Shown here one piece after another: positions 32,790 to 48,651 of a stretch of DNA of 64,000 bases. Numbering within the stretch: the stretch's first letter is position 1; the number at the start of each line of letters is the position of its first letter. The stretch is from Acidobacteriota bacterium (GTDB taxonomy: Bacteria; Acidobacteriota; UBA6911; RPQK01; JAJDTT01), in NCBI GenBank assembly GCA_965209055.1, contig OZ242374.1, forward strand, positions 2,752,001 to 2,816,000, written 5' to 3'. The position numbers and the translations under genes were made by a program. Below the pieces are notes generated by a model. It was not told the origin of the DNA, searched no databases, and worked only from the letters and a program-made list of their open reading frames with translations.

Positions 32790-35363
32790 CTACCCCGGAA
32801 ACAGCATCCCATTCAGCCGCGCCTGCCACTCGTCCTCATCCACGACCTCGAAGCGCATTACCTTGTTTCGCATCGCGGGCACGAACTCGGTCCAATCGGC
32901 CTTGCGGGCGTGCTCTCCGCAGATGTCGAAAACGGACCGTTTGTATTCGGTGTCCTCCGACGCCTTCAGGTGAACGCCCTTGGTTTCCACGACGAACACC
33001 TGGCGGAATCCGTCGTCCGCCCCGGGCTCGTCATCCCGCAGCGTCACGATGAAGTCGGCGTAGATCCGCCGCGGCTTCCATCCCTGCACGTAATTGTCCT
33101 TGCGGGCGCGGTTGCGGTACCAGAAGAAGAGCCGCGCCTGCTGGTCCAAGTAGGTCGCGACCTTGTTCTCGAACTGGTTGAGATCGTCCTCCGTGATGGC
33201 GTCGAAGAGGTTGCGCTGGTAGGGGCTACCGTCCTCCCGGTTCGCCCTCTTCGCCTTCGAAACGTCGATCTCCTCGGGAAGACGATTGAAGTCGAGATCC
33301 TCCGCGACGACCAGAAAACGCATCGTCTCCGACTCCAGGAGATCTCGGAAGACCTCGCGCGACAGACGGTCGCGTTCCATCTCGACCGTTCGGCGCAGTT
33401 CTTCGAGTACGAAGACGTGATTGGCGGCCACGCGCTCGGCGGGATATTGCTCAAGCAGGGCCTCGAAGGTACGCCGGGCCAGATCACGTCCCCGCCACGG
33501 ATTGGGAACCAGGTCCAGGAGGTGGCTGGCCGCGAAAAAGTAGTCCACCGGATCCCCGCCATTGGCCGAGTCGGCGTCGTCATGGGCTGCCACGTTTCCG
33601 GGATAGCTGCCGCTCGCCACCTCCGGCTCAGGAACACGTATCTCGCCGGTCAGGTTCGTCCGCAGCAGGTCATCTTCGCGCTTCCCCTCGTCCAACTTCA
33701 GATTGCCCAGCGCCGAGAGGTCGATGTCGTCCCAGGGCAACCGCGAAAGGATGTCCGCTTCGTAGTGGACCAGACGCCAGCCGTCCACGTCCCAGATCAT
33801 GAAGGCGGGAAGGACGAGATCGCGTGCCGCCGCTCGATACTGCGGCGACTGCCGGGTCGCCAGTTTCTCCGTCGGGCCCGTCCGGCCGTCATCGGATACC
33901 ACCCTTCCTTCGAGGCCCTGCAGCCCTTCCATCCCGAATCCCTTCCGGACTTCCTTTAGGAGTTCGTTTCCCCGGCGGCTGAAGCAGAATACGTAGCTCT
34001 CGTCAAGAAAGGGCACTCCCGTCTTGCATGCGTAGGGCTGCCGCAGGATCCGGCCCACCAACTGCGTGATGCCCGTCTTGGACATCGGATTGGTGAGAAT
34101 GGTCAGGACGTAGGCGAACGGGCAGTCCCAGCCCTCCTGCAGCGCCTGTTTGGTGATGATGAAGCGGATTGGACAGTCGCGGGACATCAGGCCGCCAACG
34201 TCGTCCACCTCCTTGAGCTCGTCCTTCGAGCTGGTCTTGACCGCGATGTGCTCCGGGCTGATTCCCGGGTGCTGGAGCAGGTACTCGCGCACATCGTCGG
34301 TGTGAACGTACCCGGGCTTCCTTTGCTGTCTGCCGGTCCTCTCCACTTGAATCACGCAGATGGGCCGGATGTAGGTCCCGGACTCCGCTTCGTAAAGCTG
34401 TGCCTTGGCCTCAAGACTCTCGCGGTGTGCGACGGACTCCAGCAGGGTGTCGCTCCAGTCGCTGCTCGCCTTGTTGCGGATGTGCAGGTCGAGCTTGATC
34501 ATCTCCTCGGCGTTGAGTTCCCGGCCCAGGACCTCGACGAGCACGTTGGCACCTTTGGACGGAGTGGCTGACAGCTCGACGATCATGCAGGGGTTGAACC
34601 CTTCGAGCGTCGCCTTTGCGGTGGCGCTGTACGCCTTGTGGCCCTCGTCGAGAATGATCAGCGGCCGCAAGAGCCGAATCGTGTTGCCCAGGGAAGACTT
34701 GACGTACCGGCTCCAGAAGCCCGTGGTCTGCTCGAAGGTGTCCAGATTGGGGTGTTCCTCCAACATTTTGGTGTGCGCTGGAGGATCGTCGTCCGGGGGG
34801 AAGAACCGGTCGAAGCCGCCGCTGTCACGGAACATCCGGAGAGTGTCCTTCGTCTTCCGGGCGGCCGAGGGCAGCATGAGCAGGAGAACGCAGAGGTTCT
34901 CGGCCACATCGCGCGGGCCGAATGCCATGGTCTTCTCGAAGATGCGGGTGCGCTGACCCGACGACAGATCGAGTTGCTGGCGGTACGGGTGGTCCCGGTC
35001 CTTGAGCGCCTTGAGTGTCTGGTTGTAGATCTGCCTCGTGGGCACGATCCACAACACCAAGCCGCGCCGACTCTGCCGGAAGTGCGCGTTGACGAGATCG
35101 ATCACCCGCGTCGCGAGCAGCGTCTTGCCGCCACCGGTCGGGATCTTGAGGCAGAAGGCGGGAAGCCGCTCGCCAAGTCCGTTGTGGCGGGGCTGGTAGG
35201 GCCTCCCGGGCACAGTCCTGCTCCACGCCCGCTCCACCCAGTCGAATCCCCATTCGGGACCCTGGCTTCGCGCCGCCCTGTCGGTATCCCGCCACGTCGC
35301 GAGCCCTTCAAGGAAGCTGCGGATCGTCGCCAGCGTCCGCTTCTGGTATTCCTTCAGGATCAT
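32790..35363 (-). CDS. Type III restriction enzyme Res subunit (DEAD/DEAH helicase plus nuclease)
   Basis: MILKEYQ; KIPTGGGKT; ILDEGH; LSATP; LQEGWDCP; QLVGRILR; IYADF..VETKG. Confidence 0.88.
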   Translation of the reverse strand: MILKEYQKRTLATIRSFLEGLATWRDTDRAARSQGPEWGFDWVERAWSRTVPGRPYQPRHNGLGERLPAFCLKIPTGGGKTLLATRVIDLVNAHFRQSRRGLVLWIVPTRQIYNQTLKALKDRDHPYRQQLDLSSGQRTRIFEKTMAFGPRDVAENLCVLLLMLPSAARKTKDTLRMFRDSGGFDRFFPPDDDPPAHTKMLEEHPNLDTFEQTTGFWSRYVKSSLGNTIRLLRPLIILDEGHKAYSATAKATLEGFNPCMIVELSATPSKGANVLVEVLGRELNAEEMIKLDLHIRNKASSDWSDTLLESVAHRESLEAKAQLYEAESGTYIRPICVIQVERTGRQQRKPGYVHTDDVREYLLQHPGISPEHIAVKTSSKDELKEVDDVGGLMSRDCPIRFIITKQALQEGWDCPFAYVLTILTNPMSKTGITQLVGRILRQPYACKTGVPFLDESYVFCFSRRGNELLKEVRKGFGMEGLQGLEGRVVSDDGRTGPTEKLATRQSPQYRAAARDLVLPAFMIWDVDGWRLVHYEADILSRLPWDDIDLSALGNLKLDEGKREDDLLRTNLTGEIRVPEPEVASGSYPGNVAAHDDADSANGGDPVDYFFAASHLLDLVPNPWRGRDLARRTFEALLEQYPAERVAANHVFVLEELRRTVEMERDRLSREVFRDLLESETMRFLVVAEDLDFNRLPEEIDVSKAKRANREDGSPYQRNLFDAITEDDLNQFENKVATYLDQQARLFFWYRNRARKDNYVQGWKPRRIYADFIVTLRDDEPGADDGFRQVFVVETKGVHLKASEDTEYKRSVFDICGEHARKADWTEFVPAMRNKVMRFEVVDEDEWQARLNGMLFPG

Positions 35364-35500
35364 TGTTCCAGGCTCTCGATCGCCTTGTAGATCTGGAAGG
35401 GCAACTGCTGGAAGTCGATCTGGTACTTGTGGAGGAAATCGCGATCCAGGTATTTCGTGGGTGCGAAGACGAGCTTTCTTCTTGATCCGGCGCAGCGGAG
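35360..35500 (-). pseudogene. C-terminal remnant of the type III Mod methyltransferase
   Basis: KLVFAPTKYLDRDFLHKYQIDFQQLPFQIY...* overlaps the Res ATG (ATGA); truncated at the motif at 35503. Confidence 0.7.
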
Positions 35501-35661
35501 AGAAGGTGACCGTCCCCTTCTCACGTCCGGACTGTTGGTCGTGCGCGCTGACGATGAGCGCCGTCCGACCCAACATGCAAGCAGCCACGTAATCGGAGTT
35601 GTCGACCGCCGGACGCTCAACGCCCGATCATCGGCTTGGACACTCAAACGACGTTGTGGCG

Positions 35662-37162: not shown

Positions 37163-39910
37163 GTGCCCCACCTACGCGAAGAGGTTCTAAACTCCTACCT
37201 CGGCTTGCTTCTTGACAGCTTCGACGGCATCAGCGCAACAACCGAGATGCGTACGTCGAGGTCTGCCATCGATATCACGGTCACTCACTCCGGCGTGCCG
37301 GATCCAGTTCCGATCTTAGTTGAAGCAAAGATTGGAGACTCTCCCGCCAACCGACGGAAGGCTGCCGACCAGGCTCGCTCCCGCCTGCATGGTGCATCCC
37401 GTTCACTTGCATTCGGGCTCTGCTATCCTCGTAACCTGAGGGACGCCTCCGTCTCGGCACACGAGACGCAGGAAGCACTTGCAAGTGCCTCTATTGCCTT
37501 TGCCCCCGTGCGCCGCACGGACTCGAAAACAACGTGGAGAGAAGGAACTGTCGCAGACCTTGCGAACAGCCTTAGAAACACCGATCTGTCCAGGCAGCGG
37601 GTCGCCGATGAGATCGAATGGACTGTTCGTAAAGCGGCCAAATTACTCTACGTGCAGGATTGCGCCAAAGTCGTCGCAAACGCCCTGACGCTACCGAATG
37701 TCAAGGACAAGGATCTGCGTGCCGCCGCGCTTGTGGGGTCGCTGATCCTGTCGAACGCCGCGCTGATTCACCAGCGCCTGCGACTGGTACCGACTCTCTC
37801 GACAATCCCGCCCTTGGAGACGATTCTGGCAGACCAAGGCAATGCGTCCTCGCGTATTCGAGACGCGTGGGGCGCGATTCTCGATATCGACTACCATTCA
37901 GTTTTTTTGCCCGCGCTGACTGTCGTCAACACTCTTTCCGACCGCCAACTCTGGCCCGCCATGGGCTGGATTTGTGAGAATGCCGTTGCCGTCGCCGATG
38001 AGCTTGCCTCGCTCCGCTTCGACCACGCCGGCCCGCTTTACCATCGCCTATTGGCATCCGCGCAATTCGACGGATCTTTCTATACCAACCATGTTTCCGC
38101 GCTCCTACTGGCCCGGCTTGCCCTCCCTGATGACTTGGTGGACTGGTCGGATGTGGACCTCCTCGCACGTCTGAAGGTCATCGATCCCGCCTGCGGGACC
38201 GGCACGTTGCTCATGGCGGCCATGCATACCATCCGCGACCGCCACGACGAGTCGGCACCGGATGGCGCCGAGTCCGACCTCCTGCATCTCGCATTGGTCG
38301 AGGACGCGCTCTATGGATTGGACATCAACCGCCACGGTGTTCAGCTTGCCGCCTGCAACCTGACTCTGGGAAACCCCCGCATCGACTACCGGCGCATGAA
38401 CCTGTTCACGATGCAGCATGGACCGCAGTCCGACGGCGAGGCCAAGGCGGGATCGTTGGAATTCTTGGCCACGGCGAGGGACGAGCGAGACCTCACGAGC
38501 TTCATCAGGCCGCTTGCAACGACCGGAGAGCTGGACGCGGAGCGGGCAGAGCCCGGGGATGCTTCCACCGGCTCGCTTACCGAGCAGTTCGATCTCGTCA
38601 TCATGAATCCTCCGTTCACCCGCAATGACATCCGGAACCGCCAGTACAGCTATCGAGACCGCCGCCGATTGCAGAAACGGGAGATCGAGATTGCGCAGTT
38701 CCTGAAACACCGCAAACCACTCGCATTCAGGGCCATCGACCAGACTAGTGTTAGCACCTTCTTCTCGCCTCTGGCCGACGCATTGCTCAAGAAAGAAGAT
38801 GCAACTCTCGCCAAGGTTGTTCCAACGACAGCGTTGACAAATGCATCAGGTCACTCTGAACGTAAGTTCCTCGCCGATCGATTCCAGATCGAGACTGTCA
38901 TTACGAGCCACGACCCGAGTCGAGTCAATTTTTCGGAGAGCACGACCATCCATGAGTCGCTTCTGGTCGCTCGGCGGCCAGAGACCGAACGTCGTGCCAC
39001 GCGCTTCATCTCCCTCCGGAAAATGCCAACGGACGCGCACGAGGCGATCTTGCTCTCGGACCGAATCAACCTCGGCGAGCCGCTGGGCGAATGGGGAACG
39101 GAACACAGGTGGCCATGGCCGAGAGTGCGCGAAGGAGACTGGACGGCTGCGCTCTACTACCACGCCGAACTGGCGGAGGCGATGCACGATCTGGCGGCCT
39201 TGGCGGCAACCGACCTCGTTCGCGCGGGAAAGATTTGCAGTATCGAGCCGGAGGGGCGGAGAGTTCGAGATGCATTCGTCCGCTATCCAAGGCGGTCAGC
39301 GCCTTGGACCTCGCCTGTGCTTTGGGACCATCCCACGGGGATTCAGACTACGATGCAGGCCGCGGCCGATGTCATGGCGGCCCCGAAGCCTGACAAAGAA
39401 CGATACGCGCATTACACGCTCCTCCCGAAAGCGAGCCGGCTGCTTATCGTCAATCGGCTGCGGACCAACACGGTGCGAGTGGCTGCCTGCTACGCGGACA
39501 ACCCGCTCTTGGGGTCGGCTTGGGTTCCAGTCCGTCCAAAGGCGGCGACTCGAATGTTTGAGAAGGCGCTATGTGCGTGGTGGAACTCGACGCCGGGTGT
39601 CTTGACGCTGCTCCATGCCCGTGCGAAGGCGCTGAACTATTCGCGCTATGCTCTCGATTCGCTTCGTGCTCTCCTCGTGCCCGATCCCGAGTCAGTCGAC
39701 GTCGCGGTACTGGCAGATGCGTTCATCGCTCATCAATCCAGTCCGCTGCAGCCTTGGCCACGCATGAATGAATGTCCCACCCGAGTCGCCCTTGACCGAG
39801 CCGCAGCACGAGTGCTTCGGCTCGACGGACATACCGTAGCGAGGTGGCGCAAGCTGATTGCGAACGAGCCGACAGTGTCAGGTAGTCGTCCCGTATACCC
39901 CATGTCCTGA
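37163..39910 (+). CDS. Type IIG-like fused restriction endonuclease / N6-adenine methyltransferase
   Basis: N-terminal DI..ILVEAK nuclease; GSFYT; VIDPACGTGTLL (motif I); VIMNPPF (motif IV). Confidence 0.82.
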   Translation: MPHLREEVLNSYLGLLLDSFDGISATTEMRTSRSAIDITVTHSGVPDPVPILVEAKIGDSPANRRKAADQARSRLHGASRSLAFGLCYPRNLRDASVSAHETQEALASASIAFAPVRRTDSKTTWREGTVADLANSLRNTDLSRQRVADEIEWTVRKAAKLLYVQDCAKVVANALTLPNVKDKDLRAAALVGSLILSNAALIHQRLRLVPTLSTIPPLETILADQGNASSRIRDAWGAILDIDYHSVFLPALTVVNTLSDRQLWPAMGWICENAVAVADELASLRFDHAGPLYHRLLASAQFDGSFYTNHVSALLLARLALPDDLVDWSDVDLLARLKVIDPACGTGTLLMAAMHTIRDRHDESAPDGAESDLLHLALVEDALYGLDINRHGVQLAACNLTLGNPRIDYRRMNLFTMQHGPQSDGEAKAGSLEFLATARDERDLTSFIRPLATTGELDAERAEPGDASTGSLTEQFDLVIMNPPFTRNDIRNRQYSYRDRRRLQKREIEIAQFLKHRKPLAFRAIDQTSVSTFFSPLADALLKKEDATLAKVVPTTALTNASGHSERKFLADRFQIETVITSHDPSRVNFSESTTIHESLLVARRPETERRATRFISLRKMPTDAHEAILLSDRINLGEPLGEWGTEHRWPWPRVREGDWTAALYYHAELAEAMHDLAALAATDLVRAGKICSIEPEGRRVRDAFVRYPRRSAPWTSPVLWDHPTGIQTTMQAAADVMAAPKPDKERYAHYTLLPKASRLLIVNRLRTNTVRVAACYADNPLLGSAWVPVRPKAATRMFEKALCAWWNSTPGVLTLLHARAKALNYSRYALDSLRALLVPDPESVDVAVLADAFIAHQSSPLQPWPRMNECPTRVALDRAAARVLRLDGHTVARWRKLIANEPTVSGSRPVYPMS

Positions 39911-40005: not shown

Positions 40006-42033
40006 TCAAGGTTTCGTATCGGCCGACCACGTGCGCAATGGTTGGACAATGTCGAAGGGCTCGCTCTTGGGAGCCCACGCCACAAACGGACTCGACGTGC
40101 GTGAGGCGGGTGCTGGATCCGGTAATCGGATTCTCGCTCGCGTCGGGACGTTGAAGGCGCTGCCAACGACAACCGCTTCGCCGGGAGCCAGGATGGTAAT
40201 CTGATCCATCAACCTTCGAGATTGGGAGGGCACGATCTTGCGAAAGTGATCGATGTCTTCGGGGTTCTGGAGGCGGTGAACAACGAAGTTTGCGCACTGC
40301 GAAAGAACGGTCGCGCTAACGTCGCTCGGGCGTTGGCTTGCGGCAATGAGAGAAAGGCCGAACTTGCGGCCCTCCTTTGCAATCCGCTCAAAAGTCTCAC
40401 GGGACACCGCAGAGCCCTTCGACTCGTCTTGGCGACGGGGGCGCACGTAGTTGTGTGCCTCCTCCAGGACGACAACCCACGGCTCCTTGAAACGTGCGGT
40501 GGCCAGCGCGTGTTCACGTACTTCGAGAAGTACCCGACCGATCATGCCGCAAACGTAGGGGAGAACCTCGTGGCCTAGCATTGAGCAATCGACTACGACG
40601 GTCGGTGCTGATTTGTAGTCTCCAATACCGAGCATTGAAAGCCAGTCTCCGATCGAGGTTATACCCAGCGCGTCGTAGTTGTAGAAGGCGTGCCAACGAC
40701 GGTCGTTCCTCCGGTTCTGAATTCGGAGCTGTAGCCCCTGAAGAAACTGTTTGATGCCCCGATCGCCGGGCGCAAGCTCGGCGGCGGCTTCGAGGTTCTG
40801 AGCGTTATCGAGTGTGCTGACCGCGAAATGAACTGGCTTGTCTGCTGTTTGCTCAATCGTGGTGGGTGAGGCATCCAGCCGCCGTTCGGCAGATTCTTTC
40901 ACGCGAAGCAGGGCATCTCGGAACGGGACTTGATCGGGTCCGAAGGACCTTGAGTGGGCCCACTCATTGTCCTTGGCGGGAGCGAGGATGTCATCGATCT
41001 TGTCAACAATCTCCTGCAAGTCCGTTTCCTGTAGTATCCACGGCAGGTAACCGAGGGTTGCCTCCCAGGCCCCGAGGCAGGATTCACCTTTTCTCGCCAT
41101 GTTGGGGTCGTTAATCCAGGCGAGCATTGCACCGATTTGGTTGACTCCGTGCTGAAGGTCCCTGCGTTCCAAAGCGACGCTCGCTCTGGCACCCTTGGCA
41201 AGCGCCCAGAGATTTACGAGGGCAGGCTGTTGCGTTTGCTCGGCGGCGCTCAGCCACTGGCATACCTCGTGAGCATTCATGAGCCAAATCGGCACTGTAG
41301 CCTCGCGTCCGTTTACGTAGATGCGGTTCGGCTGTTTGCCACCCGTGGGTTCCGGCACATCCATGGCCTGGGAATACTCGCCGTTCAGGTCAAGTATGAA
41401 GAAACGAGGTCTTGGCCAAGACTTACCGTGGACCGCCGCCGCCGACTGTAGGAGCGTTGCAATCGTACAGGATTTGCCGGAGCCGGTGTTACCAACTATG
41501 GCGAGAGGCCGCGAAAACAGATCATTGTATGAAGCGACAACTGTGCGATTGGTCGCGGCGGTGGCGCTTCCAACTTCAAGCGCGGAATCGAATGGGTCTT
41601 TCGACAACCAGCCGGCTGGCCTATTCCGAATTGGTGCTCGTTCAAGAACCGTTTGCAGGGTGTTCGTCGTGGCTGGCTGTGCCGGCGTATCCAGGGTTGG
41701 AAGGACAGTTACGCCGGGATCAAAGGCCATCTCACCACCGTGGGTCGATCGGACGACCCCGAGAAGCTGAACCGTTGCGGTGCGTCTCGGACGGACCAGT
41801 TCAAGGGACAGCCGCTGATCTTCTGGCTCAAAAACCTCCCGTGCGTAAAGGTCAGTAATGATTCCCAAGACATCCTCGCCGGCACCGATCGCAAAGGTGA
41901 TGAAGGCGTTGACCTTGACCTGAGTTGCCGCCCCGTCAAGCCCCGCTCGAATCGGGCTTCGATGGTCACGATTCAACTCAACCTTGACTCTGAATCCGTG
42001 CACTTCTACAACGCGCCCGAGCGGCTCAGTCAA
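40006..42033 (-). CDS. herA: HerA/DUF87 ATPase of a Sir2-HerA defence system
   Basis: N-terminal HAS-like barrel; AIVGNTGSGKS; LDLNGEY; VVLEEAHNY; ERIAKEGRKFG; SQRPS. Confidence 0.9.
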   Translation of the reverse strand: MTEPLGRVVEVHGFRVKVELNRDHRSPIRAGLDGAATQVKVNAFITFAIGAGEDVLGIITDLYAREVFEPEDQRLSLELVRPRRTATVQLLGVVRSTHGGEMAFDPGVTVLPTLDTPAQPATTNTLQTVLERAPIRNRPAGWLSKDPFDSALEVGSATAATNRTVVASYNDLFSRPLAIVGNTGSGKSCTIATLLQSAAAVHGKSWPRPRFFILDLNGEYSQAMDVPEPTGGKQPNRIYVNGREATVPIWLMNAHEVCQWLSAAEQTQQPALVNLWALAKGARASVALERRDLQHGVNQIGAMLAWINDPNMARKGESCLGAWEATLGYLPWILQETDLQEIVDKIDDILAPAKDNEWAHSRSFGPDQVPFRDALLRVKESAERRLDASPTTIEQTADKPVHFAVSTLDNAQNLEAAAELAPGDRGIKQFLQGLQLRIQNRRNDRRWHAFYNYDALGITSIGDWLSMLGIGDYKSAPTVVVDCSMLGHEVLPYVCGMIGRVLLEVREHALATARFKEPWVVVLEEAHNYVRPRRQDESKGSAVSRETFERIAKEGRKFGLSLIAASQRPSDVSATVLSQCANFVVHRLQNPEDIDHFRKIVPSQSRRLMDQITILAPGEAVVVGSAFNVPTRARIRLPDPAPASRTSSPFVAWAPKSEPFDIVQPLRTWSADTKP

Positions 42034-43397
42034 CGAATGTCTCCTTCATCGAATTCACCAGCCGACTTACCGCGCGGAGGTCCCTCGCGAACGAGATGTT
42101 CGACTCGGCGGAGACGAACGAAGTCATCTAGCCATCGGACGTGCGGCATGAGGTTCACTGCAAAGTCCTCGAAGGTGGCCCATTGAGGCGTTCCCTTGTT
42201 TTCTGAAGGGGCACTGGTTAGGAGAAAAGCGCGCTCGCCAGCGGTTTGATAGCGATCTAGACGTTTTTTCAACTGCGCAGGCGGCGTGGGATCAACGATC
42301 AGTACGACCAAGCTCGGGTTGGTTAGGGCCTCGTCGATGATTCGGTTGATGTGCTGATCTCCGAAGCCATAGCCAAGGATCAGAAAGAAAGTCTGAGGAG
42401 TCTTAAGGCGAACGTCGAGAGCTCGGAAGAGATGCGCGTATGGCATCCCGATCGACTGCAGGTACTTGCTCTCGGTCGGGAGAATGGCGGCAGCGTCCTC
42501 CGCATCGCTTCGAAGAAAGTCGAGTCTTTCATTTCGAGACCACCCCTGCCAATCTGTCCAGCGAGGAAGTGATCGAGAATCCGCACGTATAAGCTCACTC
42601 TGGGATTTCCGCCGCCAATCGACGGACCCGTGCAGCTTGTAGAGATGGAAGAACTTATCGAACCGCTGAACTCGACCCTCGGCTACCTCGCCCGGGTAGT
42701 ATAGATCTAGCGCATAGGCAGAGGAGTCGAACTTCGGCTCAACCGTTCCGATGAATCCGGTTGAGTAGCGAATTCGCAGATCGTCAGCTGCCGCCTCCAA
42801 GAGGAGATCGTAGTTGACTGTAAAGAGATGGGCTCTTCCAAGAGTAGGGTCGCGGGCGACGAGTTTCGCCACCAGAGCGTGATGACCTGACGGACCATCG
42901 GTTGAAAAACGTGGAAAAGGCAGTGAGCAGCGGGAGACTATGGTCCTTGAAATGGCCGCCATCAAGCTGGAAAGTTCGCCGGGCTTGAGTTGGACTCCCT
43001 TCGACCCGAAGCGTGCACCCACGGACCGAAACAGTGATCCTGACGCGTTAAGAGCATGTTCTGCGGTGGCAATGCTTGATAGCCACGTCTCAAATCCCAC
43101 AGCGGTGTTGCCTTGGTCCTTCCGAGCCCGCATTACGTCAAACGCCTTGCCGAGGTCGGGGATGCCAGGGCCCAGATCAAGAATGGTGTCCAAGACATGG
43201 TCCTGAAGTCCGGCAAGCGTGACACCGTTCTGTGAGATCGAACATCCAGCTCCAACGAGAATCACCATGTTCTCGATACGAAGCCAATCGGAGAGGAGAG
43301 CCTGGATCCGGTCGAGCGCGTCGGATCGGCTAAGTCCCTCAAGTAGGTCCCCTGATGATGCGTGAAGCTGGTAGACGTTGTCGCGTACCTCATGCAT
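42030..43397 (-). CDS. SIR2-family NADase of a Sir2-HerA defence system
   Basis: ILVGAGCS, FTVNYDLLLE, LYKLHGSVDW, LGYGFGDQHIN; 4-nt overlap with herA. Confidence 0.9.
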   Translation of the reverse strand: MHEVRDNVYQLHASSGDLLEGLSRSDALDRIQALLSDWLRIENMVILVGAGCSISQNGVTLAGLQDHVLDTILDLGPGIPDLGKAFDVMRARKDQGNTAVGFETWLSSIATAEHALNASGSLFRSVGARFGSKGVQLKPGELSSLMAAISRTIVSRCSLPFPRFSTDGPSGHHALVAKLVARDPTLGRAHLFTVNYDLLLEAAADDLRIRYSTGFIGTVEPKFDSSAYALDLYYPGEVAEGRVQRFDKFFHLYKLHGSVDWRRKSQSELIRADSRSLPRWTDWQGWSRNERLDFLRSDAEDAAAILPTESKYLQSIGMPYAHLFRALDVRLKTPQTFFLILGYGFGDQHINRIIDEALTNPSLVVLIVDPTPPAQLKKRLDRYQTAGERAFLLTSAPSENKGTPQWATFEDFAVNLMPHVRWLDDFVRLRRVEHLVREGPPRGKSAGEFDEGDIR

Positions 43398-43495
43398 GGC
43401 TGTTCCTTATGTCGCTCCACCGGCCAAGAGTCCGCGCTTTGTAAGACTTGGGACTAGTGGTATCAGCAGAAAAGGTGACTGTCCCCTTCTCACGT

Positions 43496-43894
43496 GCTGA
43501 GAGTCGTGCAAGAGGAACGCCAGTTGGCTGTAGGGCAGTTGCTGCCGGTGCTTGACGATGGCCGCGCGCAGGACCTGCTCCGCGGAGAGACCCGGAGCCC
43601 CTTGACCGGAGGTGGCGTTGTCACACAGATGGTGTAGAGCCAGATCCAGGATCGAGGGATTGCCGTCCAAGATCTTGGATACGGCTCTCAGTTCCTGGGC
43701 GAGTCGGTAATCGGGCCAGAGCCCGGGAAGCGGAAGCTGATTTTCCCGTTTTTGCCGCATTGTTCAATGCCTCGGTTTTGCGTAAGTCTTTTATTTGGCA
43801 CCGATAAACTAACAAACGACTGTGACAAAAACGGGGCATGAAAAGCCCCTTAGTCCTTATTTAACAATAACTTGCGGGTTTGCGGATGAGAACT
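43496..43894 (-). mobile_element. ISNCY-family IS remnant (left end plus truncated transposase)
   Basis: MRQKRENQLPL...ELRAVSKILD...GLSAEQVLRAAIVK...YSQLAFLLHDS, then breaks at the motif at 43472-43495; terminal-like gggtttgcggatgagaact. Confidence 0.72.
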
Positions 43895-43939: not shown

Positions 43940-44698
43940 ATGGGATTAGATCAATTGGATCGTCAGTTCGAAGTGGCGCTGTCCATCATGGAAACGACCG
44001 TCAACATGTTAGCCGCTCAGGTTCCTCAACCGCAGTTCATAACAGCCAAGAGAAGCTTTCGCTATCGGGAGAAGTCCATTCATCAAGCGATTGTTCAGAA
44101 AATCGCCCGGATGGTGAGCACCCTCCATTCCGCCCGCTTGCTACTAGAGCATGGATTTGTTCAAGAGGTTTGTGTCCTCCAGCGCGTCCTGGGCGAATTT
44201 CAGAGTGATGTGTTGTTCCTAATAATCGGCATCCAAAATCCGACTGATCTGCACAAGAGGTATCTGGAGAGTTTCTACCAGGAGGAGTTCGATACTGAAG
44301 ATCCACTACAATCGACCCACAAGCGACCGTCAATTCCACGAAGGAAGATCGATGCCATGATCGTCAAGTTTCTCAAGAGCGTTCAAGGTTTGGAACTGGA
44401 TCAGAGCACGGTATCTCACTCGTTTATAGCGGTGCATAAGACATACTCGGGGTATGTCCACGGTGCGTCGCCCCAAATCATGGACATGTATAGGGGCTTC
44501 CCTTCCATGTACCATATGAAAGGAATGCGCGAGACGCCTCTATTCCAGACTCATCGGGAAGACCTGACAAACTATTTTATTCGGGGCCTATTTACGGTGG
44601 CAATGTCGGCAGTAGCGTTCGGCATGCCCCGCGAGTGGTCAGCTGAACTGATGAGATATGCGACTTGGTTTTGCAACACATTCGAGTCGCAGAAGTAG
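43940..44698 (+). CDS. Hypothetical protein, possibly HEPN/DUF5677-like
   Basis: 252-aa helical-looking ORF with GGAG RBS; LQRVLGE and YSGYVHG motifs. Confidence 0.55.
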   Translation: MGLDQLDRQFEVALSIMETTVNMLAAQVPQPQFITAKRSFRYREKSIHQAIVQKIARMVSTLHSARLLLEHGFVQEVCVLQRVLGEFQSDVLFLIIGIQNPTDLHKRYLESFYQEEFDTEDPLQSTHKRPSIPRRKIDAMIVKFLKSVQGLELDQSTVSHSFIAVHKTYSGYVHGASPQIMDMYRGFPSMYHMKGMRETPLFQTHREDLTNYFIRGLFTVAMSAVAFGMPREWSAELMRYATWFCNTFESQK

Positions 44699-44908: not shown

Positions 44909-45565
44909 CTAACCGTCGACTCCAGCACAACGAGCTAACGAGCTCGCCGTAATTCTCAGAAAGTTCAGCCCGGCCAGCACGACCAGGATGAAGATCGCGT
45001 GTAATGCATTCTTCGAGGCCTCATGCGCCACCGCCATCACGCTGACCTTCTGGTTCCCCACCCATTCATTCGAGAGCATGTAGTTCACTTGGAGATTCAG
45101 TAGCCGGACCCGATACGCGTCGCAGGTCTCACCGTCTTGTGGAACGATATCTTCAGGAGAAAGCTCCTGGTAGGACTTCCGCTCAAGACCGGCCAAGGTG
45201 GCTCGTAACAAGAACCAGAGCTGTAAGACCACATAAAGGACGAAGAACATAGCGACAATCTTGATTTCCTCCTCGACTGCGCCCAACACCGAGGAGGCGG
45301 CTAGACCTGCTATGAATGCGGCAGAGAGTACGGAGGTCAAAGTGAACAGGGACATTAGTTTGGATTCCACGCTCTGGACACGCTCTTCTACCTTGGCCAA
45401 GCGCGAGGCAAGGATGCGTTCCACATGGTCTAGGAGATGAGCTTGCTTAGCACTGAAGTAGTCCAAGTATCGGGGCTTGGGCTCTGCATCTCCGATAAGA
45501 TGCGGCCATATCCAGTCCGGGATTCGGTCACAGAATCTTCGCATGCGACTTAGTTGCTTAGCCAT
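44909..45565 (-). CDS. Three-TM membrane protein resembling Pycsar TM effectors (DUF5706-like)
   Basis: VESK before TM1, TM1-TM2 hairpin, ~55-aa soluble loop, NQK before TM3; start overlaps the ATP-grasp stop. Confidence 0.6.
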   Translation of the reverse strand: MAKQLSRMRRFCDRIPDWIWPHLIGDAEPKPRYLDYFSAKQAHLLDHVERILASRLAKVEERVQSVESKLMSLFTLTSVLSAAFIAGLAASSVLGAVEEEIKIVAMFFVLYVVLQLWFLLRATLAGLERKSYQELSPEDIVPQDGETCDAYRVRLLNLQVNYMLSNEWVGNQKVSVMAVAHEASKNALHAIFILVVLAGLNFLRITASSLARCAGVDG

Positions 45566-46506
45566 GCTGCAATCCTGTCTGAGATGGGTAGGCCCAGTTG
45601 GTCTTCGATCCAGAGCCATTCACCGTTGGGGTTGATCTCGAAGAACACATAGGTCCCGTCCGGCTTGAGAGCAAAGTCTATAGCGCCAAAGCTGATTCGG
45701 AGGTGGGAGACCAACCGGCGGCAGCGACGAGCGAGTGTTGAGGGTAACTTGTGCGCCCTGTGCTGCAGGTTCGGGTCGTCAGTTGCCCGCCAATCCACTC
45801 TGCTCGATTCTCGGTCCTGGGACAGAATTTCGGCAGCAAAGACCTCCTCCCCCACCACGGTCACACGGATGTCGGAGGATTTCTCCACCTTTTCTTGTAA
45901 AGTGACCGGAGCAACCGCTAATCCGTCGAGGTCATCGAGGTCATCTGGAGCCATCTCGCTGGTGAAGATCGCCTGGTTCCCGTGCGCGCCCGATATGTAG
46001 CCTGAGCTTAAGGCCTTGGCCACTAGCCGAGAGCGGGCTTGGGCAACGCTCCGTGCGGCTGCCGGGTCATTGGTCATTATTGTGAGCGGGAGCGTGAAAC
46101 CTAGTTGGGCAGCCACTGCGAGCTGGTAAGGCTTCCGTTCCGCCCTCCAGATTGCCTGGGGCGAACTCAACCAGCGCTGTGTTGGCAATGCTGCTAGGGA
46201 CCCCAACAGGAACGTGCGGGTCTCCCGTTCGCAGAACTCACGGGTGCCCGAGTCTAGGCATTCGGGCAGATTCGGGGCAACGTTACGTCGATACCAGACG
46301 GACTTGACTTGCCTACCAGAAATGCTCCGTTCTCCGTCAGAGATCGTGAGGGTCCCCTGCGGATCGAAGCTCGCTCGAATTTCCGAAGGGAATCGGTCGG
46401 TGTCCAGCCTGAAGAAGGGAACAGAGCGCCGCTCCAGACCTGCGATCACGTACTCGGGGGCAAGGTCATAGGAGGCCGTCACAAGAAGGACGGTGTCAGC
46501 TGTCAT
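45550..46506 (-). CDS. ATP-grasp RiPP ligase (MvdC/MvdD graspetide synthetase family)
   Basis: FFRLDTDRFP, SVWYRR, ERKPYQLAVAAQLGF..P.T..TNDP, TLQEKVEK.SDIRVTVVG, VDWR, FGAIDF, FFEINPNGEWLWIE. Confidence 0.93.
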   Translation of the reverse strand: MTADTVLLVTASYDLAPEYVIAGLERRSVPFFRLDTDRFPSEIRASFDPQGTLTISDGERSISGRQVKSVWYRRNVAPNLPECLDSGTREFCERETRTFLLGSLAALPTQRWLSSPQAIWRAERKPYQLAVAAQLGFTLPLTIMTNDPAAARSVAQARSRLVAKALSSGYISGAHGNQAIFTSEMAPDDLDDLDGLAVAPVTLQEKVEKSSDIRVTVVGEEVFAAEILSQDRESSRVDWRATDDPNLQHRAHKLPSTLARRCRRLVSHLRISFGAIDFALKPDGTYVFFEINPNGEWLWIEDQLGLPISDRIAAWLSN

Positions 46507-46636
46507 CCGTCGTTTCGCGAGAAACCTTGGTCACGAGGGTTCCTCTCTTCGAAAGCGCGGCATCCGTGTTGGACTTGTCCTTTTCCTTAGGGAGATGTAG
46601 TGCGAACTTTGCTAGGAATGGTACATTTGCAGGCAT
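46496..46636 (-). CDS. Graspetide precursor peptide, 46 aa (below ORF-track cutoff)
   Basis: AAGGAGG RBS; MPANVPFLAKFALHLPKEKDKSNTDAALSKRGTLVTKVSRETTDDS*; PFLAKF resembles the microviridin PFFARFL leader; core rich in T/K/S and E/D; overlaps the ligase start. Confidence 0.9.
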   Translation of the reverse strand: MPANVPFLAKFALHLPKEKDKSNTDAALSKRGTLVTKVSRETTDDS

Positions 46637-46766
46637 CAAAATCCTCCTTATTCGTGCTTCCTCAAAGGCGATAGACTTGTCAGTTGTCGGCGCACTGGGT
46701 GCGCCCCTATTTGGCCGCCAATAGGCGTCTGAACCCTTGAGGTACCAATTCGCTTTGGCGAAAGGG

Positions 46767-46798
46767 ATTATATACGAGTCTTCCCAGAATTTTCACAA
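46767..46798 (-). promoter_or_regulatory. Putative sigma70 promoter for the graspetide operon
   Basis: Perfect TATAAT (46767-46772, minus strand) ~130 nt upstream of the precursor ATG; weak -35 (GTGAAA/TTGTGA). Confidence 0.4.
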
Positions 46799-47598: not shown

Positions 47599-48651
47599 CT
47601 ATGAAGTATCCCATACCTTCTTGGCACTCTTCTCGGTGGCCTTTCTTATCGCACTGTCCCCCTTGACCACGGGCCGCATCGCACTGATGTGCTCAGGCCC
47701 CGACGCACAGCAACCGCCGACAACCTGCGCTCCCATCCGCTTCCAGTTCCGTGCGAATTCAGCCATCCGCGAGGGATAGTATTCGGCGTTCTGCAGAATA
47801 TCGGGACCCGAGCTGACCCTCTGGTTGGTCAGCATGGGAGGGTTAACTATCGGGCCTGTGGGATTGTAGCCCAGGTTGGGATAGGCCCCGACCGGACCGG
47901 AGAAAGCCCTCCGGAGGCGCGGCAATCCGACTGAGATCGCCTTCGGGTTGCTGCACATCAGCAGGATCGCTCCCACGCGACGTCCCTCCAGAGCGTCAAC
48001 CAGATCCTCCAGTCGCTCGCCATATTGCATGGTGCCGTCCGGCCGGATATGCCGAATGCCCAGAAACACGGTTGCGCCCGCCTCGGTACAGGCGTCGACG
48101 GCGGTCACCGCGTCCTCGATGAAGCCCACGTACTCAGCCTGGATCAAATCCACTCCCATCTCGACCAGGAGCTTGGCGTGTTCCGCCCACTCCCGGAAAC
48201 AGGCCTCCCGCCCCATCTGCCGGGTGTCGGACACCGCGCCCGATTCCGGCCGCCCCTGCAAGGTGGGAGCCGCGATGCCACCGGCCACGTAGGCTGCAGG
48301 GTTGTGGTTGTCCCGGGCCTTCAGCGCAATCTCGGCGGCCGCCCGCGCGTAGCGTCTCCACTCCCGGCCCAGCCCGCACCGCTCCAGCCGGGTCGGCGAC
48401 GTCCAGAAGTTGTTGCTGGTGATGATGTCTGCTCCGACGCGCAGGTAATCCTGATGGACCTGCTGCACGACGTCGGCGAATTCGAGGTTCGCGGTGGCCG
48501 ACCAGGCCTTCAGGCCGTCCTTCGCGCCCACGAGGACATCGACGCCGCGTCTTTGCAGTTCGGAACCGGTGCCCCCGTCCAGGAGCAGCGATTGACCCTC
48601 GTTCAACCGGTCCAGGATGGGAGGTCTGGGCATGGATCCAGTAGGGGACAC
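47599..48651 (-). CDS. Homocysteine S-methyltransferase family protein
   Basis: LLDGGTGSELQRRG, VHQDYLRVGADIITSN, GAYPN, VGGCC. Confidence 0.9.
   Translation of the reverse strand: MSPTGSMPRPPILDRLNEGQSLLLDGGTGSELQRRGVDVLVGAKDGLKAWSATANLEFADVVQQVHQDYLRVGADIITSNNFWTSPTRLERCGLGREWRRYARAAAEIALKARDNHNPAAYVAGGIAAPTLQGRPESGAVSDTRQMGREACFREWAEHAKLLVEMGVDLIQAEYVGFIEDAVTAVDACTEAGATVFLGIRHIRPDGTMQYGERLEDLVDALEGRRVGAILLMCSNPKAISVGLPRLRRAFSGPVGAYPNLGYNPTGPIVNPPMLTNQRVSSGPDILQNAEYYPSRMAEFARNWKRMGAQVVGGCCASGPEHISAMRPVVKGDSAIRKATEKSAKKVWDTS

Follow-up and report, generated by a model that had tools for sequence, protein, structure and literature searches.

The window analyzed here, a stretch of DNA of 64,000 nucleotides, harbors on its minus strand three consecutive genes: a graspetide precursor of 46 aa (46496..46636, with the ATG at 46636 and the stop codon ending at 46496), an ATP-grasp graspetide ligase of the MvdC/MvdD type with 318 aa (45550..46506), and a membrane protein of 218 aa with three transmembrane segments (3-TM; 44909..45565), which falls in no Pfam family and appears distantly PycTM-like. 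A preliminary description of this DNA had presented the three genes as overlapping. Reading of the sequence places all of them at the positions given there, with reading frames that overlap by 11 nt between precursor and ligase and by 16 nt between ligase and membrane protein. The small peptide had also been credited with a strong ribosome binding site, and a Shine-Dalgarno motif AAGGAGG can indeed be read at 46643..46649 of the minus strand, with 6 nt between it and the precursor ATG. A promoter-like site (46767..46796, minus strand; GTGAAA, 18-nt spacer, TATAAT; 10/12 matches) lies ~130 nt upstream of this ATG; its position is good but it is statistically not special, two such sites being found in the region vs. 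1.1 expected from shuffles. Regarding the third gene, its longest ORF opens at 45619; because 59 homologs begin at the MAK... methionine, the likely start of the protein is 45565. According to a Pfam and PADLOC scan of the neighbors, no ABC exporter, peptidase, or tailoring enzyme adjoins the cassette, as the preliminary description had stated for exporters, leader peptidases, and tailoring genes, and none recurs in the 16 loci compared either.

The precursor exhibits a leader motif, PFLAKF, at residues 6-11 and a C-terminal core, TLVTKVSRETTDDS, at residues 33-46. Both hallmarks of a graspetide precursor can be found in it, namely a Phhx(1,2)h leader, as this motif is defined in the available text of Makarova et al. 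(2022; PMC8939145), and a core with Thr/Ser/Lys ahead of Asp/Glu. In 18 aligned precursors, P6, F7, T33, T36, V38, R40, E41, T42, D44, and D45 are invariant, and the peptides share a PFLxxF leader, which is of the kind recognized by MvdC/D-type ligases, and a C-terminal core of 13 residues, T..T.V.RETTDD. Ahead of the core, this alignment shows one conserved Gly and no conserved GG cleavage site. Related loci harbor one to three separate precursor genes ahead of the ligase gene, and paralogous precursors with diverged leaders all keep the same core. The window precursor has a single core, as have all precursors of its clade; tandem multi-core precursors, of the form LLTKT....E.DDD, occur only in proteobacterial plasmid relatives.

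The ligase matches the MvdD pre-ATP-grasp domain PF21068 (E 1.8e-20, 73.6 bits, cut-off 27). Its best NCBIfam matches are the ATP-grasp RiPP maturases TIGR04187, TIGR04185, and TIGR04184, of which the curated cut-offs are all missed, with 272.2 vs. 350 bits for TIGR04187 (SAV_5884 type), 242.9 vs. 425 bits for TIGR04185 (MvdC), and 229.4 vs. 475 bits for TIGR04184 (MvdD). Judged by these scores, the enzyme is a relative, but no member, of the three families. Putatively, it closes rings within the core by forming side-chain esters from Thr to Asp/Glu.

Occurrence and neighborhood of the three genes

The ligase gene can be found directly upstream of the membrane protein gene in 8 of 9 genome loci, the ninth retaining a ligase remnant only, and in 17 of 20 metagenome loci, the remaining three of which begin at a contig edge (17/17 informative loci). 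The pairing holds likewise in 4 of 6 loci with distant membrane protein matches from a scan of the phylum (just a fragment is present in the remaining two), in distant Chloroflexota relatives, and in the three proteobacterial plasmids inspected (3/3). The preliminary description had proposed to check whether the membrane protein gene stands beside ligase homologs, and the genome and metagenome loci answer this in the affirmative. Since the three-gene arrangement recurs in dozens of independent loci, it is more than a chance association. In the ligase tree, TM-linked ligases cluster (4 label changes vs. 14.5 in shuffles, with 0/500 shuffles as low), and within the same phylum the membrane protein gene accompanies only 10 of the 30 ligase loci listed. 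The ligase and membrane protein genes are translationally coupled, to each other and to the precursor gene, and co-inherited, and the ligase keeps its membrane partner over deep divergence. A recurrent fourth gene was considered as a further part of the module and rejected, none being common among 16 loci.

Of 401 genomes scanned in the phylum, 7 have the membrane protein family, and none of five from the same genus does; the family can also be found in five plasmid records, none of them from Bacillus. In the window, the G+C content falls to 0.54-0.56 at 42-48 kb. The trio is a self-contained, horizontally mobile three-gene module. In one locus (L004), most of the ligase gene has given way to an IS1380 transposase and the TM ORF is intact; in two others (L003 and L007), the match to the ligase is spread over two frames, which may be assembly errors, and the TM ORF is intact as well.

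Further genes of the window encode TmtA (24411-29975), a GmrSD-Schlafen fusion (GmrSD/HEC-05; 30226-32508), a type III restriction subunit (32790-35588), a MTase (37163-39910), HerA (40006-42033), SIR2 (42030-43397), and a homocysteine S-methyltransferase (47599-48651), together with an ORF (43940-44698) that has no Pfam or PADLOC match and no homolog in the other loci. The nearness of the cassette to Sir2-HerA and RM genes, already pointed out in the preliminary description, is thereby located precisely. No cyclase appears among the PADLOC matches listed for the eight flanking window proteins.

Close relatives of the cassette are flanked by varied defense genes, including SIR2-HerA, RM, Tiamat, CBASS, HmaC, and a TIR protein. 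A type II MTase and a TIR protein (PDC-S35) can be found next to L001, a CBASS cyclase with a patatin effector next to L003, HmaC with a LmuB-like protein next to L005, and large IIG-like MTases next to L002, L003, and L008. Because the identity of the window MTase to the latter three is no more than 26-28%, the shared defense context is not simple shared synteny. A fixed unit of MTase and cassette was also considered and rejected, the window MTase being, at this identity, no ortholog of those in L002, L003, and L008. The contexts of close relatives are not fully independent, since these relatives are kin. Other neighbors are a radical SAM protein (L007), an amidohydrolase and an integrase (L009), and a fused isobutyryl-CoA mutase (L086).

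For the wider family, 103 neighbors from 16 TM-type loci gave matches to 85 PADLOC families, and 101 neighbors from 14 graspetide loci without the membrane protein gene gave matches to 36, many of them reflecting one kinase that matches many models. Counted by protein, PADLOC-positive neighbors amount, among the matches listed, to ~12-14 for the TM-type loci vs. ~9 for the others. This comparison, a crude one, reveals no clear defense enrichment of TM-type over other graspetide loci, so that the enrichment which the preliminary description had named as a check is not shown for the wider family.

The membrane protein and its likeness to PycTM

Hydrophobic segments of the membrane protein lie at about residues 72-97, 101-125, and 187-207. 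The N-terminal part carries a WPH motif; the TM1-TM2 hairpin follows, and a conserved loop, ~60 aa long, leads to TM3. Hydropathy and charge place the N-terminus, as a prediction, inside the cell, and for this reason the WPH-motif N-terminus and the TM2-TM3 loop would both face the cytoplasm. Collagen-like C-terminal tails, which would lie extracytoplasmically, can be found in 16 of 102 family members, and some members have a conserved C-terminal extension; a domain scan of ten long members yielded no informative domain.

No Pfam, NCBIfam, or PADLOC model matches the protein, and PADLOC-DB v2.0.0, its Pycsar models included, at E<=1 gives 0 families for precursor, ligase, and membrane protein alike. 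Pfam scans of the family (59 and 102 relatives) yielded scattered sub-threshold matches only. A Foldseek search, which the preliminary description had recommended, brought no structural match in either database: the AF2 model of the protein (pLDDT 74.9) has no match in the PDB at E<=0.001, and its best E-value against BFVD is 0.32, with a SLATT-domain protein first appearing at rank 39 (E 3.7). Comparison with 48,161 chains by VIA-align returned generic helical bundles only, with Z up to 10.0, a value that helical models often exceed by arrangement alone. A profile search of PDB sequences gave 0 matches, and a scan of viral contigs gave 19 pattern matches, none of which is a relative. Complex prediction of the membrane protein with the precursor scored 0.00 in two runs in which the controls did not fold, and is evidence neither way.

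The Pycsar likeness had been judged by eye in the preliminary description. When the 102-member family is aligned by hhalign with 21 PycTM ORFs (PF18967), the probability is 76.4% (score 40.2, 145 collinear columns), while it is 2.0% and 1.7% with one side reversed; 60 shuffles within hydrophobic/soluble segments score 15.7±3.7, with a maximum of 30.2, and none of them (0/60) reaches 40.2. Against SLATT_1 (PF18181), the only SLATT family covered and an alignment of only 6 sequences, the probability is 0.6%. In the alignment with PycTM, E67/K69 coincide with the D.K before TM1, and N166, K173, and A180 with the N...K...A before TM3. The WPH motif region is specific to the family, lies outside the PycTM-like region, and is absent from PycTM. 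A PycTM HMM built in this analysis gives weak matches to family members (best 1.7e-5), and one homolog has a precomputed PF18967 match. Among protein-language-model neighbors, 9 of 30 matches listed and 17 of 30 named matches listed belong to the PycTM-bearing set (top score 0.93), PycTM being the only family to which the clusters of these neighbors pointed.

PF18967 itself has no match to the protein at E<=1, its gathering score of 27.2 bits not being reached; it leaves the gene unmatched even at E<=10 when scanned over the whole genome, and it is absent among the 25 families listed for the 59 or 102 relatives. A hhalign probability of 76% is moderate for a membrane protein, and the controls are home-made. 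The likeness first seen by eye thus gains an alignment that the controls fail to reproduce, but no PycTM match at the Pfam threshold, and the sequence comparisons are suggestive, though not proof, of a remote relationship with PycTM.

Possible functions of the cassette

Remote PycTM similarity and the defense-island setting together suggest a ligand-gated membrane-disrupting effector, and it is from these that we propose the cassette to be a peptide-gated, PycTM-like membrane effector module, with a probability of roughly 0.4. On infection, the ligase would cyclize the ribosomal peptide, and the product would stay cytoplasmic with its leader attached; since no leader peptidase or exporter lies nearby, it is in the cytoplasm that the cyclized peptide would meet the membrane protein. 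The macrocycle might bind the cytoplasmic face of the PycTM-like protein and open or assemble a membrane-disrupting pore, so that a peptide made, or made active, during infection would switch the effector on and abort the infection, filling the role of cCMP/cUMP in Pycsar. In this specific form, i.e., with a RiPP as an immune second messenger, cyclized at the time of infection and still bearing its leader, the proposal seems to us somewhat unlikely. More speculatively, the multi-core precursors of the proteobacterial relatives could be multivalent ligands that cluster effector subunits. The operon measures 1.7 kb, and the claim is directly testable.

The ligase-TM pairing, the lack of a fourth gene, the PycTM similarity, the context of close relatives, and the patchy distribution were counted for the effector reading. 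Counted against it were the collagen-like tails (16/102 members), for which a pure suicide effector has no obvious use, the absence of the family from the viral contigs scanned, and the resemblance of the plasmid multi-core precursors to plesiocin and thuringinin, which are treated as natural products in the available text of PMC12291112. So were the missing PycTM match at the Pfam threshold, the negative PADLOC and fold searches, the lack of clear defense enrichment in the wider family, and the protease inhibition that PMC8939145 gives as the activity of the graspetides characterized.

Alternatively, the locus may be an ordinary thuringinin-type graspetide cluster of which the peptide is used outside the cell, e.g., as a protease inhibitor, with the 3-TM protein acting as dedicated exporter or channel, in place of the missing ABC/MFS transporter, or in self-immunity, a possibility that we regard as doubtful yet serious. 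In the available text of Makarova et al. (2022; PMC8939145), every characterized graspetide inhibits proteases, and "cluster 18" membrane proteins, for which transport is proposed, are specific to thuringinin loci and mostly found in loci without known peptide transporters. The tandem multi-core precursors of the plasmid relatives are like those of known multivalent graspetides (PMC12291112, available text), no other exporter can be found in the 16 loci, and some family members bear extracytoplasmic collagen-like tails or a conserved C-terminal extension. That some distant family loci adjoin metabolic genes, and that graspetide loci without the membrane protein gene likewise have some PADLOC-positive neighbors, would also fit. 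However, leader peptidase and conserved GG cleavage site are lacking, a single conserved Gly preceding the core, and both conserved soluble parts of the membrane protein are predicted to be cytoplasmic. The core is moreover invariant, where secreted inhibitors would be expected to vary at their target contacts; an invariant core behind diverged leaders is more in keeping with a fixed receptor than with a variety of protease targets. The only family that the membrane protein resembles is a defense effector, and we know of no RiPP-exporter precedent for a 210-aa 3-TM protein without an energy-coupling domain.

A role of the membrane protein as a biosynthetic partner or scaffold, tethering or stabilizing the ligase at the membrane for efficient cyclization and having no effector or transport role, appears improbable. 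Partner-dependent graspetide biosynthesis does exist, with MirC for rosaritide (PMC13097080, available text), and PMC8939145 lists a study (Weiz, 2011) on membrane-protein scaffolding of microviridin biosynthesis. The coupling of ligase and TM genes (16-nt overlap), their co-inheritance, and the family-specific N-terminal WPH motif outside the PycTM-like region would agree with such a role. Nevertheless, the partner is missing from most graspetide ligases of the same phylum, 10 of the 30 ligase loci listed carrying its gene, and the PycTM-like core and the defense-island setting are left unexplained. In E. coli, moreover, the thuringinin ligase reportedly needed no membrane partner to modify its precursor. 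Less credible still is a toxin-antitoxin-like arrangement, in which the membrane protein would be a constitutive membrane toxin checked by the cyclized peptide, and infection, by loss of the unstable peptide, would free the toxin. A membrane protein gene that lies, within a defense island, downstream of the gene for a small and labile product would agree with it, such operon logic and setting being typical of TA-type abortive-infection modules, and one to three precursor genes per locus could raise dosage. Yet the TM ORF is intact in L004, where the ligase is destroyed by the IS1380 insertion, and in L003 and L007, with their ligase match divided between two frames (possibly through assembly errors). 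If the modified peptide served as an indispensable antitoxin, cells in such states should not survive, which counts against this arrangement. For a peptide-gated effector, survival of the L004 TM ORF after ligase loss is allowed by a membrane protein that would be harmless without its ligand.

To our knowledge, all known signal-gated membrane effectors of phage defense (Pycsar, CBASS) respond to nucleotides, and the native role of most graspetides is unknown. The membrane proteins of thuringinin-type loci have so far only been guessed to be transporters. If the membrane protein is a diverged PycTM and phage protection holds true, a ribosomal macrocyclic peptide can be an intracellular immune signal, and effectors of the PycTM type can be adapted to an entirely different chemistry. 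A second-messenger role would make it the first peptide-signal analog of Pycsar or CBASS and would provide a native intracellular function for a graspetide. An export or immunity role, if true, would make the family a novel and minimal type of protein for RiPP export or immunity, a less surprising outcome that would still be useful for annotating graspetide clusters.

Comparison with known systems

The association of membrane proteins with graspetide loci is already known and not new, uncharacterized membrane proteins specific to thuringinin loci having been described with a predicted role in peptide transport (Makarova et al., 2022; PMC8939145, available text). Thuringinin-type loci (precursor cluster 13 of Makarova, "cluster 18") share with the cassette a three-part layout, in which one MvdC/D-type ligase is accompanied by its precursor(s) and by a small membrane protein, an ABC transporter being absent, as well as a leader with the Phhx(1,2)h motif and Thr ahead of Asp/Glu in the core. 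They differ by having several tandem core repeats per precursor, whereas the precursors of the window clade are single-core, with C-terminal T..T.V.RETTDD, and are encoded by one to three separate genes. The comparison of "cluster 18" with the present membrane protein family is by description only and reached no Bacillus locus; the available text of PMC8939145 reports neither homology for the membrane protein nor a defense context.

The microviridin system (MdnA, MdnB/MdnC, MdnE) resembles the cassette in its leader (PFFARFL vs. PFLAKF), in the MvdD pre-ATP-grasp domain, and in the side-chain macrocyclization chemistry expected. It has two ligases where the cassette has one, the core is different, and the cassette harbors no ABC transporter, scaffold, or acetyltransferase. 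The window ligase stays below the MvdC and MvdD equivalog cut-offs.

In the literature searched, no link was found of an ATP-grasp/graspetide module to PycTM or SLATT, nor any such module as an antiphage system. The anti-phage lanthipeptides of Streptomyces, which we take to be secreted compounds acting on phage, belong to another RiPP class, whereas the window peptide is proposed as an intracellular signal for a membrane effector. Common to both is a RiPP proposed or shown to be anti-phage (bioRxiv 10.64898/2026.08.26.747419, available text).

With Pycsar, the cassette shares a defense-island location and a gene for a signal-making enzyme, putative in the cassette, that adjoins a gene for a ~200-aa protein. 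In both proteins the elements follow one another alike, beginning with an N-terminal helix that bears an acidic-x-basic motif; next come a TM hairpin and a soluble stretch of ~60 aa and finally, behind N...K...A, the third TM. No ligase, precursor, or membrane protein homolog can be found in the 23 PycTM loci fetched. The window membrane protein differs by its additional N-terminal WPH-motif region, absent from PycTM, and where Pycsar relies on the nucleotide cyclase PycC (cCMP/cUMP), the cassette has an ATP-grasp ligase with a ribosomal peptide as substrate.

Architecture of the cassette

The three genes of the cassette overlap one another on the minus strand (44909-46636), as reported with correct coordinates in the preliminary description, and all three ORFs can be read from the sequence. 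The first encodes a 46-aa peptide (ATG at 46636, stop ending at 46496), and the Shine-Dalgarno sequence AAGGAGG ascribed to it is present at 46649-46643, 6 nt upstream of the ATG. The 318-aa ligase ORF (46506-45550) overlaps the precursor by 11 nt and is itself overlapped by 16 nt by the 218-aa ORF of the 3-TM protein (45565-44909). The longest ORF of the latter starts at 45619; since all 59 homologues begin at the methionine of MAK..., 45565 is the most likely start. A motif scan detected a promoter-like site on the same strand (GTGAAA, 18 nt, TATAAT) ~130 nt upstream of the precursor gene, favourably positioned and statistically not special.

By its sequence, the middle gene encodes a graspetide-type ATP-grasp ligase, in line with its early designation as MvdC/D-type: it carries the MvdD pre-ATP-grasp domain (PF21068, E 1.8e-20, Pfam scan), and its best NCBIfam models are three ATP-grasp RiPP maturase families. 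Each score lies below the curated cut-off (272 vs 350, 243 vs 425, and 229 vs 475 bits), which makes the ligase a relative of these named families and a member of none. The 46-aa ORF is a credible graspetide precursor, with a leader, PFLAKF, and a C-terminal core, TLVTKVSRETTDDS. The leader fits the Phhx(1,2)h motif, the counterpart of microviridin's PFFARFL according to Makarova et al. (PMC8939145). Across 18 aligned precursors, leader residues P6 and F7 and core residues T33, T36, V38, R40, E41, T42, D44, and D45 are invariant, while the stretch between leader and core varies freely in sequence and length. The core is always at the protein end, usually preceded by Gly, and no GG site is found before it in these 18 sequences. 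Each locus has one to three precursor genes, with different leaders and an identical core. No leader peptidase is encoded near the cassette, nor is an exporter, as had been noticed before. By every feature testable here, the cassette is, as far as its sequence tells, a graspetide cluster.

Recurrence of the trio

Precursor, ligase, and TM gene form one co-inherited, translationally coupled unit. Homologues of the TM protein number 59 in a word-indexed search and 294 representative clusters at E<=0.001 in an exhaustive HMMER search, and the TM gene was found to recur beside ligase homologues. Among nine genome_contigs loci encoding a TM relative, eight have a ligase directly upstream (41-82% identical), itself preceded by one to three precursor genes. 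In the ninth, L004, an IS1380-family transposase (L004:4263-6016; 54% identical to annotated ones) replaces all but the last 52 ligase codons, and the TM ORF is intact downstream of the remnant. Two other loci, L003 and L007, have a ligase match broken over two reading frames, possibly by assembly error. The ligase is directly upstream of the TM gene in 17/20 loci on metagenome contigs, the other three beginning at the contig edge. Six loci of distant TM hits display an adjacent ligase at 28-38% identity in four cases and a fragment only in two.

Within the phylum, the TM family profile matches 7/401 genomes, none of them among the five from the window's own genus. Reciprocally, 26 of these 401 genomes contain graspetide-type ligases, and a family member lies immediately downstream in 10 of the 30 ligase loci listed, some of these matches being weak (E up to 0.007). 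The same layout can be found on megaplasmids of Pseudomonas aeruginosa, Croceicoccus marinus, and Sinorhizobium americanum, where the TM proteins match the family at 1e-17 to 1e-18 and the precursors (69-174 aa; L082, L083, and L084) have 3-6 tandem cores, LLTKT....E.DDD. On P. aeruginosa RW109 plasmid 1 (L082; LT969519.1: 334225-336211), the ligase bears the annotation RimK, and its two companions are listed as hypothetical proteins. Only five plasmid records contain the TM family vs 74 with such a ligase. A maximum-likelihood tree was built from 52 ligases; those linked to a TM gene group together on it, with 4 label changes vs 14.5 for shuffled labels (0/500 shuffles as low), many TM-linked rows having been found via the TM protein and hence being enriched for kin. 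The tree is compatible with a single origin. When the neighbours of 16 loci were compared all against all, no recurrent fourth gene emerged, the only exception being a large MTase common to three close relatives.

A congeneric genome (G088) lacks the window's cassette and carries a distant version instead (L088), whose ligase shows 35% identity and whose TM protein matches the family profile at no better than E 2.8e-4. Two or more diverged forms of the module, at separate loci, are therefore present in the genus.

The membrane protein and its probable relation to PycTM

Three hydrophobic segments, as anticipated, are found in the TM protein at residues ~72-97, 101-125, and 187-207. The short TM1-TM2 loop has no Lys/Arg and three acidic residues, while 13 Lys/Arg occur in the N-terminal 70 residues and 6 in the 60 residues leading up to TM3; the positive-inside rule would place the two conserved soluble parts in the cytoplasm. 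No Pfam, NCBIfam, or PADLOC family was matched. An AlphaFold2 model (59 sequences, pLDDT 74.9) has long helices at 39-93, 99-127, and 148-213; it matched nothing significant in PDB or BFVD, and VIA-align returned generic helical bundles only. A feature found only in the ligase-linked family is the stretch of 40 N-terminal residues with its conserved WPH motif.

PycTM (PF18967) is the membrane effector of Pycsar, and three sequence-based leads converge on it. One TM-protein homologue has a precomputed PF18967 hit. In the ESM Atlas, 9/30 nearest and 17/30 named clusters fall in the PycTM-bearing set (top score 0.93; PycTM family on 11-13% of members). Finally, hhalign of the 102-member TM family against 21 aligned PycTM ORFs (from 23 loci in 22/401 proteobacterial genomes) gave 76.4% probability and a score of 40.2 over 145 collinear columns (residues 45-200), with E67 and K69 paired with the D.K before PycTM TM1, and N166, K173, and A180 with the N...K...A before TM3. 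Reversing one alignment gave 2.0% and 1.7% probability, and 60 shuffles of PycTM columns within hydrophobic/soluble segments gave 15.7±3.7 (maximum 30.2). The suspected Pycsar resemblance gains moderate support at the profile level, above controls, but not as a Pfam-threshold match, reached by no family member among the scan matches listed, nor as a fold match. Also against it, a genome-wide PF18967 scan at E<=10 gave no match to the window's TM gene, and none of the 23 PycTM loci contains a ligase. The TM protein is a probable but unproven remote homologue of PycTM. Against an alignment of only six SLATT_1 (PF18181) proteins, hhalign gave 0.6%.

Five long distant family members (P0131, P0134, P0156, P0185, and P0189; 378-514 aa) share a conserved C-terminal extension of ~170 aa after the PycTM-like part (...GWQ.VG.VDK..L..D.AAIYG.NQ.LAMARA.WV...). 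It has no Pfam match at E<=0.01 and, by eye, recalls OmpA/MotB-type peptidoglycan-binding motifs.

Genomic setting, possible roles, and known systems

The window is a defence island, and the reported proximity of Sir2-HerA and RM genes was confirmed. The cassette is preceded by TmtA of Tiamat (24411-29975, minus strand; 1854 aa, PADLOC E 4.4e-207, nearly full length), a 760-aa protein (30226-32508, minus strand) fusing GmrSD (PF03235, 2e-30) to C-terminal Schlafen AlbA_2 (PF04326, 7e-18), with candidate family HEC-05 as its best PADLOC match, a type III restriction subunit (1e-168), DUF6615 and MTase genes, and HerA (8e-217) and SIR2 (2e-130); it is followed by a homocysteine S-methyltransferase. 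TmtA, type III RM, and SIR2-HerA make up an unbroken run of defence genes of ~20 kb. Two ORFs without Pfam match separate SIR2 from the cassette, of 117 aa (43407-43760, minus strand) and 252 aa (43940-44698, plus strand, convergent with the TM gene), the latter with no PADLOC match and no homologue by the cassette in 18 other loci. G+C is 0.54-0.56 at 42-48 kb vs 0.60-0.65 around.

The cassettes of close relatives are flanked by differing defence genes: a type II MTase and a CAP12/PycTIR-like TIR protein (L001), IIG-like MTases of 900-950 aa (L002, L003, and L008), a CBASS cyclase with patatin effector (5e-108; L003), and HmaC (4e-94) with an LmuB-like ATPase (L005). The window MTase shares only 26-28% identity with its counterparts in L002, L003, and L008, so that these neighbourhoods are not one inherited block. 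In L001, the 416-aa TIR protein (L001:3375-4625, plus strand; PF10137, 9e-26; PADLOC PDC-S35, 3.5e-17) is immediately upstream of the precursor genes. Elsewhere, neighbours include a fused isobutyryl-CoA mutase (L086), an amidohydrolase and an integrase (L009), and a radical SAM protein (L007). PADLOC scans at E<=1e-10 yielded 85 families for the TM-type loci (16 loci, 103 neighbours) vs 36 for graspetide loci without TM gene (14 loci, 101 neighbours), a gap stemming largely from a single protein matching many related models; among the matches listed, PADLOC-positive proteins number roughly 12-14 vs ~9. The data thus hint at enrichment near defence genes in the clade of the window, with no clear enrichment across the wider family, some distant members of which have metabolic neighbours.

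Judging from its family, the ligase would bind the PFLxxF leader and close Thr-to-Asp/Glu ester rings in the core, and the topology suggests that the product may encounter the TM protein at the cytoplasmic face of the membrane. A peptide-gated PycTM-like effector in phage defence is tentatively favoured (probability about 0.4), given the similarity to PycTM, the location of close relatives in defence islands, a core that does not vary, and the missing export machinery. Only slightly less likely, the TM protein may be dedicated to exporting an ordinary thuringinin-type graspetide or to conferring immunity to it; this role is helped by the multi-core precursors of plasmid relatives, by the collagen-like Gly-X-Y repeats ending 16/102 family members, predicted to be extracytoplasmic, and by the neighbours of distant loci, which are not defence genes. 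Transport was proposed for thuringinin-locus membrane proteins by Makarova et al. (PMC8939145). That it is a biosynthetic partner or scaffold appears improbable, and a toxin-antitoxin-like arrangement is very unlikely, as the survival of the TM protein in L004, whose ligase gave way to a transposase, argues against the modified peptide as an essential antitoxin.

Regarding known systems, uncharacterised membrane proteins and co-occurring proteins without Pfam matches are already recorded in graspetide surveys (PMC8939145; PMC13097080), so that the association itself is not new. Among the papers searched, none brings ATP-grasp ligases or graspetides together with PycTM, SLATT, or antiphage systems. 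What appears to be new is the connection between the membrane protein and PycTM, and likewise the placement in a defence island. The layout of the cassette is like that of thuringinin-type loci, but with a single-core precursor.
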